This document shows positions 2,819-42,012 of a stretch of 64,000 nucleotides of DNA, piece by piece; positions within the stretch are counted from its first letter, which is position 1; the number at the start of each line of letters is the position of its first letter. The notes under the pieces were generated by a model. It was not told the origin of the DNA and searched no databases. It saw only the letters and a list, made by a program, of their open reading frames with translations. The translations under genes and the position numbers were made by a program. The DNA is from a virus. The stretch lies in the IMG/VR virus record IMGVR_UViG_3300045988_139196, one strand, 5' to 3'.

Positions 2819-3686
2819 CAATGCAGATGTATATTTCTATACTGGATACCGCACTGCAACATATCTTCACAACCGCTAATTGTGCCTACTGTTTCAATTA
2901 TGTGCCAATCTCATAATCTACTCTACTCGATTACTTTCATAATAAAAGCTATAATATTATGATATTCTTTCGATGTCCTCTACACTCTCTAAATTCCATT
3001 TATATTAAATTCCATTGATAACCTTGAAGTAATAATTGCTTTTTATTGTTTGTATCTTGATAAAAGTCTTTACCTTTTAATCCAATATTTTTTCCCAATT
3101 CTTTTCTATCAAATGTTCCAACATAAATATTGTTTTTGTATAATTGATACATAAATCTTTTTGGCGATTTTTTATTTTTTAATGCTTTTCTCGTATTATT
3201 TTCTCTAGTTAATATTTGCAAATTTTCTATTGAATTATTTTGAGGATTTGCATCTATGTGATCGATCGTCAATTCCTGCGGAATATCCCCCATCAGTGTT
3301 TCATATACCAATCTATGTACTCGGTAATATTTCCTTATATGCCGATTATTTTCTATAAAAGAAAGGCATACTTCTAAATATCCATCTTTATCCACTTTAT
3401 AACAATGTTCTCTTGGTTGAAATATATTTATTCGCCCTTGTCCACCTTTAACTTTAGTAGTTATTACTTTGCCACTTTTGGTAACATAGTATCCGTCATA
3501 TTTAGTTTTATAAGCAATTTCATTTTCAAAAATTATTTCCTCCATAATTAAACCTCTCACTAATTTTCTTATGGAAATTAGATAGCACGGTATTACCATA
3601 TCAATTATGACTTAGGTTTCACCGTTAGCAACTTTCGTCACACCCTTTAGCAAGGTTAAGTAGGTTTTATTACGGCAATATTACTT
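2819..3686 (-). mobile_element. group I-like intron 2 in nrdD (carries an HNH ORF)
   Basis: About 868 nt lie between exons 1 and 2. The 5' exon ends GGT and the intron ends CATTG, as in intron 1. It contains GCTAACGGTG..CTAAGTC, similar to the other two introns. Confidence 0.6.
3000..3545 (-). CDS. HNH homing endonuclease (intron-encoded)
   Basis: Motif IDHIDANPQNNSIENLQILTRENN. The ATG at 3545 is preceded by GAGAGG. Confidence 0.8.
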   Translation of the reverse strand: MEEIIFENEIAYKTKYDGYYVTKSGKVITTKVKGGQGRINIFQPREHCYKVDKDGYLEVCLSFIENNRHIRKYYRVHRLVYETLMGDIPQELTIDHIDANPQNNSIENLQILTRENNTRKALKNKKSPKRFMYQLYKNNIYVGTFDRKELGKNIGLKGKDFYQDTNNKKQLLLQGYQWNLI

Positions 3687-4337
3687 ACCGTATTGTTGAC
3701 TAGCTGCCGACATTGTTACATCACTTATAACATCGAAGGCAACGTCAAGTGTCTTAGGCTCGTTATAATGAATATTACCCATTTCAAAGCCACCAGACAA
3801 AACATTTGCCATATCGAAAATACAACAGTTTATGCCGTCAAGTCTGTCTTTCTTATCATGAATATAGATATAACCGTCTCTAGCCGCCTGTCTTTCTTCA
3901 ACATTCAAGAAGAATTTATCATACAGGTTCTTGTTCAACTCACCATAAATCAAACTGCGCTGTGTGCTAGTCATAGTAGAATCAGTGTTGGCATTTGAAA
4001 CATCGCCAATATAACGAATACCTTGAGACTTGGTATATACATCGTCCATCATATGAACAAAATCTTTTTTATAATTTCTATACTGTCTATAACATTCACC
4101 TGATTTTGGATAAAGGTCAAGCAAAGTTCGTTCGACTATTGCGTGTATTGCCTCAACCGAAATACAATCATTTTCTAAATCTTCTTCCATTATGTAGTCC
4201 ATAACAGCGGAGCAAATTTTTTCATAATCTTTGTCCGAAAGATTTTCTAATGCCCTGCTAGCCGATTTACTACAGGCATTGATTATTTTTTGATAATCAA
4301 AATCTTCTAATGTTCCGTCCTTTTTTATTACTTTCAT
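3687..4337 (-). CDS. nrdD: anaerobic ribonucleotide reductase, exon 1 (ATP-cone and N-terminal part)
   Basis: Begins MKVIKKDGTLEDFDYQKI (ATP-cone-like) with SD AAGGAG upstream. The ORF stops 2 codons after the proposed 5' splice site. Confidence 0.8.
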
Positions 4338-39076: not shown

Positions 39077-39736
39077 ATGAGCAAAATAAAATTAATTCTT
39101 ATCGCACTCATGACAATATTAGCATTGTCCTCATGTAATAGTAAAACAACAAGTTCCATATCTGACAGTAATTTCACTACCACTACAACAATTACAACAA
39201 CCACCACTCCCACAACAACTTCTCATACTTTGACAACAACCAAACCATCAACTACCACAACCACTTCCAAATCATCAACTACTACCACAACGACTACAAC
39301 CACAACGACAACTACAACTACCACGCATGATTATAGTTCTGAAATAAGTGCTTTAGAGCAAGAAAATAATCGCCTACAGGGTGAAATCTCCACCTATCAG
39401 AACGAAATAAACAATGAGCAATCTGATATTTCCATCTATGAAATCTATAAATCGGATGCCGAAGATGATGTTGAGGAGGCTAAAATACAGCTTGAAAACG
39501 CCAATAAGAAAATGGTTAAAGTTTATGGTGATGGCGGTTGGACTACAGAAGTTGACTCAGAAGCAGTTTCAAAGGCTCAATCTCACTTAGACGATTGCCA
39601 AAGAGTTGTTGACGTGTACAATGAACTTATATCAGAAAGTCAAAGTAATATTGATTATTATAACACTTGTATATCCAATAATCAAAGTTCCATTGAAAGC
39701 AATAATAGTCTTATAAACGATTATCGTAGCAGATAA
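39077..39736 (+). CDS. lipoprotein with Thr-rich linker and coiled-coil domain
   Basis: Signal peptide with lipobox LALSSC, a poly-T/S linker, and heptad-like QNEINNEQ repeats. SD GGAGGA upstream. Confidence 0.75.
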   Translation: MSKIKLILIALMTILALSSCNSKTTSSISDSNFTTTTTITTTTTPTTTSHTLTTTKPSTTTTTSKSSTTTTTTTTTTTTTTTTHDYSSEISALEQENNRLQGEISTYQNEINNEQSDISIYEIYKSDAEDDVEEAKIQLENANKKMVKVYGDGGWTTEVDSEAVSKAQSHLDDCQRVVDVYNELISESQSNIDYYNTCISNNQSSIESNNSLINDYRSR

Positions 39737-39758
39737 TCATAAAACAGGAGGTAATACC

Positions 39759-40118
39759 ATGAAGAAAATTTGTTCCATTCTTGTGATTGCAATAGGAATA
39801 ACACTATTTGTGATAGGTTATACAACAAAAATTCCAAGCAAAAATTTAACCACATTTTCAATTTTGGAAGGTGACAAGTATAGTGCCATTGACGAATATG
39901 TTGGCGGTGACGCTTACAACTATATCATAGGAGCTTCACTTGTCAGCGGTAAAATAGCCGCTGCGAAAATTGAGAGAGTAATTTTCATATCCACTGGCTC
40001 ATTAATTTTCTCCATTGGCATAATTGGTTTTGCATTTTCATTTAAAACCAAAGAAAAGAAACCTAAAGAAAAAAAAGATGTTGGCGAGCAGGGTGACTTG
40101 TCACAAACTAACGAATAA
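39759..40118 (+). CDS. membrane protein (about 3 TM helices)
   Basis: Hydrophobic segments; SD AGGAGG upstream. Confidence 0.65.
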   Translation: MKKICSILVIAIGITLFVIGYTTKIPSKNLTTFSILEGDKYSAIDEYVGGDAYNYIIGASLVSGKIAAAKIERVIFISTGSLIFSIGIIGFAFSFKTKEKKPKEKKDVGEQGDLSQTNE

Positions 40119-40144
40119 AATTTACAAAGTTCCACAAAATAGTA

Positions 40145-40173
40145 TTGACAAAATGAGTATAGTATGCTATACT
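40145..40173 (+). promoter_or_regulatory. promoter of type III TA locus 1
   Basis: TTGACA, 17 nt, TATACT. Confidence 0.75.
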
Positions 40174-40202
40174 ATAAATGATGAAAGGTAGTTATTTACC
40201 AT

Positions 40203-40292
40203 TTCCGCTTACCAATATGCGGGATATAAATGGTTGGGTTGAAAGTTTTCCGCTTACCAATATGCGGGATATAAATGGTTGGGTTGAAAGTT
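40203..40292 (+). ncRNA. type III antitoxin-like RNA: two perfect 45-nt direct repeats
   Basis: TTCCGCTTACCAATATGCGGGATATAAATGGTTGGGTTGAAAGTT occurs at 40203-40247 and 40248-40292, plus a 2-nt partial third copy. Confidence 0.8.
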
Positions 40293-40294
40293 TT

Positions 40295-40327
40295 AAGCCT
40301 TGCCGTTGTGGCAGGGCTTTTAATTTT
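40295..40327 (+). terminator. intrinsic terminator between RNA repeats and toxin gene
   Basis: AAGCCTTGCC-GTTGT-GGCAGGGCTT followed by TTAATTTT. Confidence 0.75.
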
Positions 40328-40342
40328 GGAAGGTGAAAAATA

Positions 40343-40849
40343 ATGGTTGAACATGGCTTTTATATAATTGATGATTTATTCTTCAAGAAATTTAACGACC
40401 CTTTTCTAAAAGGAAATAAATCCGAAAATCGTCCTCATTACTATTGTTTTAAAGATACTAATGAAGGACTATATTGGATAATTCCTTTAAGCTCACGCAT
40501 TAACAAGTATCAAAAGATAATCAACCAACGCTTAAAAAATCATAAGCCATGTGATATATTACATATTTGTACTCTGAGCAATGGAAAACAAAGTGTATTT
40601 TTAATACAAGATATGTTTCCCATTACTCAAAAATATATCAAGCGTAAATATACCATTAATTCCAATCACCTCATTCTTAAAAATCAAAATGAAATACGAA
40701 TTATTAAACAAAAAGCTGAACGTATTCTTAATCAGATCAATCGAGGTCAACATTGTATTACAACTTGTGCCGATGTATTATCTATCAAAAAAGAACTGCT
40801 GTTAGAACTACAGATAGAAACTCAAACAGCGGACACTCTGACTTGTTGA
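40343..40849 (+). CDS. ToxN/AbiQ-family type III toxin (endoribonuclease-like), copy 1
   Basis: GFYIIDD..F, ENRPHYYCF, GLYWIIPLSSR and FLIQDMFPIT match the ToxN/AbiQ pattern. SD GGAAGGTGA upstream. Confidence 0.8.
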   Translation: MVEHGFYIIDDLFFKKFNDPFLKGNKSENRPHYYCFKDTNEGLYWIIPLSSRINKYQKIINQRLKNHKPCDILHICTLSNGKQSVFLIQDMFPITQKYIKRKYTINSNHLILKNQNEIRIIKQKAERILNQINRGQHCITTCADVLSIKKELLLELQIETQTADTLTC

Positions 40850-40901
40850 TTTGTGTTTTTTGAATTTGCATAAAATTCCATTCAAAACTTTTTGAAAAGC
40901 A

Positions 40902-40930
40902 TTGACAAATTGACAATAGTATGCTATACT
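40902..40930 (+). promoter_or_regulatory. promoter of type III TA locus 2
   Basis: TTGACA, 17 nt, TATACT. The 27 nt at 40918-40944 are identical to 40161-40187. Confidence 0.75.
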
Positions 40931-40962
40931 ATAAATGATGAAAGATTATCTCTATCATCTCT

Positions 40963-41087
40963 AATTTACGCTTCGCAATGTGCGACACAGAAACATTGTA
41001 GATACAATTACGTTTCACAATGTACGGCAAAGTAACATTGTAGTATTCAATTTACGCTTCGCAATGTGCGACACAGAAACATTGTAG
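40963..41087 (+). ncRNA. type III antitoxin-like RNA: about 2.9 copies of a 43-nt repeat
   Basis: Units start at 40963, 41006 and 41049. Units 1 and 3 are identical over 39 nt (AATTTACGCTTCGCAATGTGCGACACAGAAACATTGTAG). Unit 2 is diverged. Confidence 0.8.
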
Positions 41088-41089
41088 TG

Positions 41090-41132
41090 ATGCTGTCATT
41101 TTGGTTAATCTGAAGTGACAGCATATTTTTTT
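41090..41132 (+). terminator. intrinsic terminator between repeats and toxin gene
   Basis: ATGCTGTCA-17 nt-TGACAGCAT followed by ATTTTTTT. Confidence 0.7.
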
Positions 41133-41151
41133 GTATTAGGAGTGTCAAAAT

Positions 41152-41640
41152 ATGACGGAACATGGTATGTACTTTATTACACCCGACTATTATCAACTTA
41201 TTCGAGATGTAGGAGGAACTTGGAATGATTGCAAGGAAAGACCCATTGTTTGTTTGATTAAGTCCACCGAAAATTCCAAATTGTATTGGGCAATACCTGT
41301 AGGCAAAGTAAATCATCGTGACACTAAAGCTATTAATCGTATTTATTCCTATATAAACAAAGATCCAAGAAATATTGCTTCTTGCTTTTATCACATTGGC
41401 AAGACAACCACCAAATCTATTTTCTTTATTAGTGATGCTTTTCCTGTAACAGATGTCTACATAGACAGAATTTATGAGGGCTATGATAAACAACAATATG
41501 TCATTGAAAACAATAATCTTCTGTCTGCTCTGAAATATAAGCTCCAAAGAATTTTAAGTTATGAAAATGCTAATCCAAATTTCTTCCGTCAGCATATTAC
41601 CGATGTTAAAAGAAAACTATTAGACGAAATTAACAATTAA
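41152..41640 (+). CDS. ToxN/AbiQ-family type III toxin, copy 2 (diverged paralogue)
   Basis: GMYFITPDYY, KERPIVCLI, KLYWAIPVGK and FFISDAFPVT. SD AGGAG upstream. Confidence 0.75.
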   Translation: MTEHGMYFITPDYYQLIRDVGGTWNDCKERPIVCLIKSTENSKLYWAIPVGKVNHRDTKAINRIYSYINKDPRNIASCFYHIGKTTTKSIFFISDAFPVTDVYIDRIYEGYDKQQYVIENNNLLSALKYKLQRILSYENANPNFFRQHITDVKRKLLDEINN

Positions 41641-41657
41641 ACAAAAGAGGTATTCTT

Positions 41658-41990
41658 ATGTCCGAAATTAAATCAATAACAGACCAAGAAATATTATCAT
41701 ACTGGAACTCAATTAAATCCGTAAGAGGAGTTGCTATTAAACTCGGTATCTCGTGGCAAAGAGTTATGAAAAGTCTTTCTAGTTTAGGTATTATAGTTAA
41801 TAATACCCACGCCAAAATCACTCAATACCACAAAGAAGGGAAGTCGGCTAATGAGATTGCCAACTTAATGAATATGAACGTTAATGTTGTGAAAGCCTAT
41901 CTCCCACGCAACAGACCTCAATACAAGGTTAATCAATCTAAAAATGCTCTAGCAGTACAGAGGAGTAAAGAACGCCACAAGAAACGCTAA
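41658..41990 (+). CDS. DNA-binding protein with two HTH-like repeats
   Basis: VRGVAIKLGISWQRVMKSL and SANEIANLMNMNVNVVKAYL. Confidence 0.5.
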   Translation: MSEIKSITDQEILSYWNSIKSVRGVAIKLGISWQRVMKSLSSLGIIVNNTHAKITQYHKEGKSANEIANLMNMNVNVVKAYLPRNRPQYKVNQSKNALAVQRSKERHKKR

Positions 41991-42012
41991 AGGGACTTTT
42001 AAAAGTCCCTTT
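41989..42012. terminator. bidirectional hairpin terminator
   Basis: Palindrome AAAGGGACTTTT/AAAAGTCCCTTT between convergent genes, with a T-run on the plus side. Confidence 0.65.

Follow-up and report, generated by a model that had tools for sequence, protein, structure and literature searches.

On the plus strand of a 64,000-nt stretch of viral DNA (the window) lie, in order, a promoter, an array of three tandem repeat units, an intrinsic terminator and a gene for a 162-aa protein (Table 1). This locus, here locus 2, shares the window with a related locus 1, a canonical cptIN. An initial annotation had described the order promoter, repeats, terminator, toxin as a complete type III toxin–antitoxin (TA) unit, and the arrangement was borne out, with promoter, array, terminator, ribosome-binding site and open reading frame (ORF) each located: tandem direct repeats with their own promoter stand 5' of the toxin gene, and a Rho-independent terminator separates the two. 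In a promoter scan the promoter agrees with the consensus at 11 of 12 positions, with a TG extension, and would start transcription at about 40937-40939, as deduced from the position of the -10 element alone. It is contained in a 50-nt segment (40895-40944) that is a direct copy, at 90% identity, of the promoter/leader of locus 1 (40138-40187).

Table 1. Features of locus 2, with positions in the window
Feature	Position	Strand	Detail and basis
Sigma-70-type promoter	40902-40930	+	TTGACA 40902-40907, 17-nt spacer, TG-extended -10 TATACT 40925-40930
Leader, inferred transcription start to unit 1	40938-40962	+	~25 nt; predicted from sequence
RF02920 Fusobacteriales-1 RNA, three hairpins	40964-41085	+	88.7 bits; gathering score 52.1
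Antitoxin unit 1, type A	40963-41005	+	Tandem Repeats Finder, Rfam match, pseudoknot pairs
Unit 1 S1	40969-40971, 40982-40984	+	CGC, GCG; L1 UUC 40972-40974
Unit 1 S2	40975-40981, 40993-40999	+	GCAAUGU, ACAUUGU
Unit 1 A-rich loop	40985-40992	+	ACACAGAA
Unit 1 tail	41000-41005	+	AGAUAC
Antitoxin unit 2, type B	41006-41048	+	Sequence, covariation, conserved core
Unit 2 S1	41011-41013, 41024-41026	+	CGU, ACG; L1 UUC 41014-41016
Unit 2 S2	41017-41023, 41035-41041	+	ACAAUGU, ACAUUGU
Unit 2 loop	41027-41034	+	GCAAAGUA
Unit 2 tail	41042-41048	+	AGUAUUC
Antitoxin unit 3, type A	41049-41088	+	Same as unit 1 over 39 nt; Tandem Repeats Finder, 39-nt repeat
Unit 3 S1a, S1b	41055-41057, 41068-41070	+	
Unit 3 S2a, S2b	41061-41067, 41079-41085	+	
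Unit 3 repeat end	41086-41088	+	Repeat ends after AGU
Intrinsic terminator, between array and toxin gene	41090-41132	+	15-pair stem 41090-41124, then T-run
Ribosome-binding site	41138-41142	+	AGGAG, 9 nt 5' of ATG
CptN-like toxin gene	41152-41640	+	162 aa; ORF and homology

Tandem Repeats Finder delimits the array at 40963-41088 (period 44, 2.9 copies, 80% matches, score 189), which confirms the 2.9 copies of a ~43-nt repeat and the unit starts at 40963, 41006 (41005/41006) and 41049. The description of the units given earlier also proved accurate. A 39-nt string common to units 1 and 3, AATTTACGCTTCGCAATGTGCGACACAGAAACATTGTAG, occurs exactly twice, at 40963-41001 and 41049-41087 (0 of 100 shuffles). 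Unit 2 carries substitutions and an indel, its 5' tail being shorter by 1 nt; it shows 79% identity to units 1 and 3 when aligned ungapped and 82% over the core.

The window is part of a phage genome, with PHROGs assignments that include a DNA polymerase, a RecJ-like exonuclease, a DnaB-like helicase, exonuclease V and an anti-repressor, and a plus-strand island at 39077-41990 sits among minus-strand genes. A blastn search of the locus 2 DNA against the phage collection gave no match. The helix-turn-helix gene at 41658-41990 was considered as a third component and ruled out, as it is not found beside the toxin gene outside near-identical phages. A 166-aa minus-strand ORF (41047-41547) runs antisense to the conserved toxin ORF, and the 665 homologues of the toxin explain its conservation.

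The toxin and its active-site loop

The protein had been taken for a diverged ToxN-like toxin. All four strings cited in that assignment (FITPDYY, RPIVCLI, LYWAIPVGK and SDAFPVT) are present in the 162 residues, and the protein is indeed a diverged relative of the locus 1 toxin (BLASTP, 30% identity, E 6e-17); the family, however, is CptN instead. No Pfam family matches at E<=0.1, ToxN_toxin (PF13958) included, nor does any PADLOC or NCBIfam TenpIN model. At 57.7 bits, the toxin missed the cut-off of 90 of NCBIfam CptIN (NF047359; 168.9 bits for the locus 1 toxin), but aligns with that profile end to end, at E 1.2e-15. A phmmer search of the PDB returned a sole entry, CptN from Eubacterium rectale (4RMO), at E 1.1e-4, the corresponding value for the locus 1 toxin being 6e-51. 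Comparison of the family profiles of the locus 1 and locus 2 toxins (hhalign) gave a probability of 98.8% and E 8e-17. An AlphaFold2 model built from 22 homologues reached a pLDDT of 91.8, and its top Foldseek match is 4RMO_A (E 1.3e-9, TM 0.76/0.79), followed by MazF/Kid/CcdB and AbiQ. On the basis of the profile, phmmer, hhalign and Foldseek results, the toxin is CptN-like rather than ToxN-like, and the structure model predicts that it has the CptN fold.

The family to which the toxin belongs comprises 665 clusters at 90% identity, with 53 representatives at E<=1e-30 among 50%-identity clusters, and has 44 invariant columns, G51, H55 and R56 among them. The exact protein of the window occurs on at least 1000 contigs. 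All public names that we have seen, including that of Fusobacterium WP_005887821.1, are "hypothetical protein" or "uncharacterised protein"; the present analysis marks this large family out as CptN-like toxins. Loci encoding relatives of the toxin (n=140) were fetched, from hosts that include Clostridia, Fusobacterium, Enterococcus, Lysinibacillus, Phascolarctobacterium and many phage contigs; the one at 99% identity (L001) is from Hominimerdicola aceti.

The active site of E. rectale CptN consists of a Ser-Ser-Arg motif together with Asp81, Ser85 and Tyr104 (PMC4627078), and S50 and S51 are invariant in canonical CptN. When the two families are aligned (hhalign, MAFFT), IPLSS-R of CptN corresponds to IPVG[N/K]xxHR, both serines being replaced by Gly followed by Asn or Lys, and the toxin of the window has the loop G51-K52-V-N-H55-R56 in place of S-S-R. 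The insertion that brings in the invariant His is three residues long (7 by BLASTP/MAFFT). The Arg of the motif (Arg53) is retained, as are the equivalents of Ser85 (S89) and Tyr104 (Y108, which is Y or H across the family), whereas an equivalent of Asp81 is absent from the alignment, which leaves the CptN active site incomplete at the level of aligned residues. Deeper relatives have IPTS[D/N]xSHR, that is, Thr-Ser is kept and the His-Arg insertion is present as well. With two serines replaced and a His-containing insertion, ribonuclease activity is not to be assumed from the canonical CptN site, and the altered loop offers a concrete target for learning how such putative RNases would work.

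Pseudoknot structure of the repeat units

Covariation assigns to each unit an H-type pseudoknot with an S1 stem CGC:GCG, an S2 stem CAAUGU:ACAUUG and an A-rich loop of 8 nt. The S1 stem is made by three nucleotides lying 3 nt 5' of S2, which pair with the first three nucleotides of the loop, and S2a abuts S1b. In an alignment of 40 diverse arrays (alignment A2), 91.9% of cells are paired, compared with 20-52% when the partners are slid; two-sided changes occur in 23 of 32 pairs, and none of 500 shuffles matches the observed values. The core S1 pairs, three per unit, are ~100% paired in these 40 arrays and swap between CG, UA, GC and AU. An alignment-free check on 199 distinct units, with S1 read in fixed register to S2, found 86% of S1 positions paired versus 16-69% in shifted registers. 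Minimum free energy folding of the whole transcript, a method that cannot model pseudoknots, yielded non-local pairings (z -2.9) and was of no help. Judged by covariation, the repeat RNA folds as a pseudoknot, as the RNA of a type III TA system should.

Non-identical units within one array

The diverged internal unit had been regarded as unusual and degenerate. The comparison of loci contradicts this, as identical units are found in just 5 of 47 distinct three-unit arrays and the S1 changes are compensatory. Where units of one array differ in S1, the difference is two-sided in 86 of 98 cases, with both versions paired. Units also differ in how well they are conserved, the mean identity between loci being highest for unit 3 (0.85) and lowest for unit 1 (0.72). 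The idea that arrays follow an A-B-A rule fails in that form: sorted by whole-unit identity, 16 are ABA, 16 ABB, 8 ABC and 5 AAA. By stem pattern (S1+S2), x-y-x is seen 11 times against 3 for x-x-y plus x-y-y, and by S1 alone 16 times against 5, an excess that yields no clean statistic because the arrays are related and not independent. Keeping the units different may avoid misfolding between neighbours, may avoid loss by recombination, or may supply two RNA species. A far-reaching version of this idea would make the group a distinct and widespread CptIN sister family, with catalysis by the His-Arg loop and a selected, position-specific array (CGU:ACG in the middle unit versus CGC:GCG in the last); we regard it as conceivable, though rather doubtful.

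Loss of units does occur. One locus with an identical toxin (L089) retains a single unit, units 1-2 having been lost, the outcome that recombination of unit 1 with unit 3 would produce, and single-unit arrays are also found at several Fusobacterium loci. The single unit of L089 beside an identical toxin parallels E. rectale CptI, of which one repeat gives full antitoxicity (PMC4627078).

It had been suggested earlier that unit 2 of the window is a degenerate copy, whose RNA would be non-inhibitory or of other specificity. Four of the 8 nucleotides in its A-rich loop differ from those in units 1 and 3 (GCAAAGUA versus ACACAGAA), single changes in the same loop of E. rectale CptI (A29U, U30 deletion) abolish antitoxicity (PMC4627078), and PMC12283969 raises the same question for the non-identical repeats of tenpI. 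Nevertheless, when unit 2 was aligned with units 1 and 3 on the structure, the check that the initial annotation had called for, the changes turned out to preserve both stems: C>U at 41013 is compensated in S1 by G>A at 41024, and the outer pair of S2 changes from G.U to A-U through G>A at 41017. Of the two loop versions, that of unit 2 is, moreover, the nearer to the family consensus GCAAAGAA. The core of unit 2 shares 94-97% identity with the middle units of four distant loci (L065, L050, L048 and L028), the toxins of which are only 53-56% identical to that of the window. Of 32 near-identical phage loci, 30 have unit 2 unaltered, one (L081) has a single L1 substitution and one (L089) has lost the unit. 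Such conservation of a middle unit at distant loci is not expected of a decaying copy and disfavours a non-inhibitory RNA, so that we consider degeneracy unlikely. As far as can be judged from comparison of the units, unit 2 is a conserved, structurally compensated positional variant and not a decayed copy.

Among type III systems, toxI and cptI repeats are reported to be nearly identical, and only tenpI repeats to be non-identical, with their function left open, in a 2025 survey (PMC12283969). There, TenpIN likewise has tandem units, whose divergence reaches tens of percent while each can form a pseudoknot; unlike locus 2, it has another toxin family and two units per array, and the passages of that source considered here report neither covariation nor position-specific conservation. 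To the question of whether non-identical repeats are functional, as posed for tenpIN, the arrays compared here provide a comparative answer in the form of compensatory divergence and conservation by position.

The array and the toxin gene as a module

The array of the window is a full-length member of the Rfam family RF02920 (E 5.8e-12, model positions 1-113 of 113, score above the gathering threshold), in which each of the modelled hairpins corresponds to the S2 stem of one unit. The Fusobacteriales-1 RNA motif that this family represents reportedly stems from the 2017 screen of Weinberg et al. The name is absent from the main text of PMC5737381, a literature search found no paper naming Fusobacteriales-1 and none linking RF02920 to type III systems, and in a preprint on the mining of non-coding elements type III loci serve as training data only. 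Of 20 diverse loci scanned with Rfam models, 18 have RF02920 above the gathering score, each time directly 5' of the toxin gene, and a search with an HMM of the unit (nhmmer) placed units 5' of the toxin in 100 of 109 distinct loci, with 4 matches elsewhere in ~800 kb. This linkage indicates that the RF02920 motif and the toxin gene constitute one module. The range of the motif here extends well beyond Fusobacteriales, to Clostridia, Bacilli, Negativicutes and phage contigs.

Rfam classes RF02920 as "Cis-reg" and models hairpins only, whereas at the loci examined the motif goes with a CptN-like toxin gene, and a pseudoknot stem, S1, covaries in it. The Rfam type, the constant position of the array 5' of the same gene and a terminator that sets the ratio of read-through would all agree with a cis-regulatory leader, either an attenuator or a protein-binding site, that tunes the downstream gene and is not a trans-acting antitoxin. 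We consider this very unlikely: the protein encoded downstream is homologous to CptN and is modelled with its fold, the array, having its own terminator, would build up as a separate RNA, and the unit has the pseudoknot layout, repeat length and copy number of CptI, its 43/44 nt and 2.9 copies falling within the range of cptIN repeats (40-48 nt and 1.9-3.4 copies; Table 2 of PMC3401426). As a type III antitoxin, with a pseudoknot missing from the Rfam model, the orphan motif RF02920 would gain a function.

The reading that we favour, and in which we place considerable confidence, is that locus 2 is a self-contained CptIN-type TA system, which a Hominimerdicola aceti phage carries in an accessory island, with unit 2 as a functional positional variant. 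What bears on it directly is the anatomy of the locus, the homology and fold of the toxin, the RF02920 identity of the array and its near-obligate linkage to the toxin gene, the pseudoknot seen in covariation, and the conservation of unit 2. We conclude that this type III TA module is real and probably functional, and that it represents a divergent CptIN variant, from a large unannotated sister group, rather than a new kind of system. CptIN of E. rectale (4RMO, PMC4627078; PMC3401426) has the same order of promoter, tandem repeats, terminator and toxin, the same fold, and likewise a pseudoknot with a short L1, S2a joined to S1b without a loop and an A-rich L2 (PMC4627078), with a linker of ~11 nt. 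The locus 2 family differs in that its toxin is ~21-30% identical and lies under the NCBIfam CptIN cut-off, in having three mostly non-identical units, and in the change of the active-site Ser-Ser to Gly-Asn/Lys with a His insertion. ToxIN (ToxN/AbiQ, PF13958) shares the general type III design and a Kid/MazF-like toxin core, but AbiQ ranks 48th by structure against the toxin model, with a TM of ~0.6. Its repeats are shorter, typically 31-36 nt, and the ToxIN complex is a heterohexamer.

Fusobacterium strains, F. vincentii ATCC 49256 for example, have been listed with one cptIN locus each (Table 1 of PMC3401426, Blower et al. 2012), and this same strain is the source of one of the loci that carry the locus 2 toxin family (L038). 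The TA nature of such Fusobacterium loci was probably recognised in 2012, the link being a match at the level of the strain.

A mechanism modelled on CptIN would run as follows. In the accessory island of the ~100-kb gut phage of H. aceti, a strong promoter would drive transcription of the three tandem units of 43/44 nt, with most transcripts ending at the terminator and a minority reading through, from which the 162-aa toxin would be translated. Each unit would fold into an H-type pseudoknot with a 3-bp S1, an L1 of 2-3 nt (UUC), an S2 of 6-7 bp and the A-rich 8-nt loop, and the toxin, as a CptN-fold endoribonuclease, would cut the linkers of 11-13 nt by analogy with 4RMO (PMC4627078). The cut would probably fall after a conserved A, 3-5 nt 3' of S2, so that the sites in the window would be AGA^U, AGUA^U and AGUGA^U. 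Linkers share the consensus YUUAUNCAAAYA, and 3' of unit 3 the likeness fades at position ~4-5; cleavage behind the conserved A, like that of CptI (UUGA^), would agree with this. The processed pseudoknots would then hold the toxin inactive in a closed protein–RNA ring. From the same analogy we infer the antitoxicity of the RNA, the toxicity of the protein, the cleavage of RNA and its site, the stoichiometry, and any role against phages or in addiction. Neither of the two CptIN systems assayed in E. coli conferred resistance to phages (PMC3401426).

Scarcely probable, finally, is the view that the toxin has no ribonuclease activity, its S50 and S51, invariant in canonical CptN, being G and N/K, and that locus 2 is an inactive or repurposed relic riding with an active locus 1, given that the family is large and clearly constrained (665 clusters, 44 invariant columns), that locus 2 stands without locus 1 in ~2/3 of related phages and in all other lineages, that the locus 2 RNA is conserved more than its protein, and that deeper relatives hold both Thr-Ser and the His-Arg insertion.

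The repeats of the two loci, for their part, had been called unrelated, a statement that does not hold: their units align ungapped at 60-62% identity, with TTT.CGCTT..CAAT.TGCG in common and the same stem layout. The locus 1 repeat, if cut UUGA^AAGU, fits the published CptI numbering (G44-A45 end, A27-G35 loop, U30; PMC4627078). Together, the fit to this numbering and the ungapped alignment identify the two arrays as diverged relatives. Locus 1 is present in ~10 of 32 near-identical phage loci, where it is bounded by the duplicated promoter/leader (40138-40187 and 40895-40944), and its presence or absence exactly at this common 50-nt segment shows how such cassettes get swapped.

Variation in the canonical module and in repeat number

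Among 32 near-identical phage loci, only about 10 carry the canonical cptIN locus 1 (40138–40849), which lies upstream of the CptIN-like locus 2. A 50-nt promoter/leader is duplicated here, the second copy (40895–40944) being 90% identical to the first and 757 nt apart from it. Since the boundary of locus 1 presence and absence among these phages falls exactly at this duplicated segment, the pattern fits gain or loss of the locus 1 cassette through recombination at the 50-nt repeat. When cut as UUGA^AAGU, the locus 1 CptI repeat (array at 40202–40294) matches the numbering published for Eubacterium rectale CptI (PMC4627078), and its ungapped alignment with the locus 2 unit (array at 40963–41087) gives 60–62% identity.

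The number of repeat units also varies. In L089, a locus of a related phage (IMGVR_UViG_3300045988_131965) whose toxin is 100% identical to that of locus 2, there is one unit, at approximately 2900–3000, which would be the expected product of recombination between the identical units 1 and 3. The arrays of three Fusobacterium loci (L042, L131 and L132) likewise consist of one unit; downstream of its first copy, L042 carries a truncated second copy (approximately 3776–4184), comprising two more repeat units and a toxin fragment of 30 residues.

Deeper relatives of the toxin

Five deeper relatives of the locus 2 toxin (P0254, P0259, P0260, P0266 and P0274) contain the motif IPTS[D/N]xSHR. Because this motif combines the Thr-Ser of ToxN/CptN-type sites with the His-Arg insertion, these proteins look like intermediates between canonical CptN and the locus 2 toxin family. 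Some homologues (P0267 and P0269) are 230–332 aa long with C-terminal extensions. The toxins of loci L133/L134 and L136–L138, which are more distant relatives, are 36–37% identical and are preceded by different repeats, which gave no match with RF02920 or the unit HMM; that of L136 is a 40-nt unit present in 2.2 copies, with S1-like pairing AGACU:AGUCU of 5 bp.

Surroundings of the modules

Features flanking the two modules, and a promoter-like site within locus 2
Feature	Position	Strand	Remarks
Thr-rich protein, 219 aa	39077–39736	+	signal-peptide-like N-terminus, long Thr-rich run
Membrane protein, 119 aa	39759–40118		next after the 219-aa protein gene
Promoter-like site	41148–41120	-	TTGACA-17-TATGCT, 10/12 matches
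Helix-turn-helix ORF, 110 aa	41658–41990	+	starts 17 nt past the toxin stop
Bidirectional terminator	41989–42012		after the helix-turn-helix ORF
Tyrosine recombinase, 286 aa	42013–42873	-	Pfam Phage_integrase, E 1.3e-10

Upstream of locus 1, the Thr-rich run is encoded by ACN repeats (39233–39321), and a copy of the membrane protein gene occurs in about 26 of 33 near-identical loci, being missing in some related phages. The promoter-like site lies between the locus 2 terminator and the toxin start and is directed antisense over the array; as the promoter scan found 18 sites against 11 expected, it may be a chance match. Between the locus 2 toxin gene and the helix-turn-helix ORF there is no terminator. 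The ORF weakly resembles Cbp1, a protein that binds CRISPR repeats, in a match (E 5.6e-7) that falls far short of the cut-off; it was not found beside the toxin in other lineages. The recombinase gene adjoins the toxin–antitoxin island on its downstream side in convergent orientation.

Two other Rfam RNAs were observed near related modules: a HEARO RNA (L114, 660–862; 137 bits), which precedes the module by about 2 kb, and a skipping-rope RNA (L021, 3493–3570; 55 bits), directly 3' of the toxin gene.
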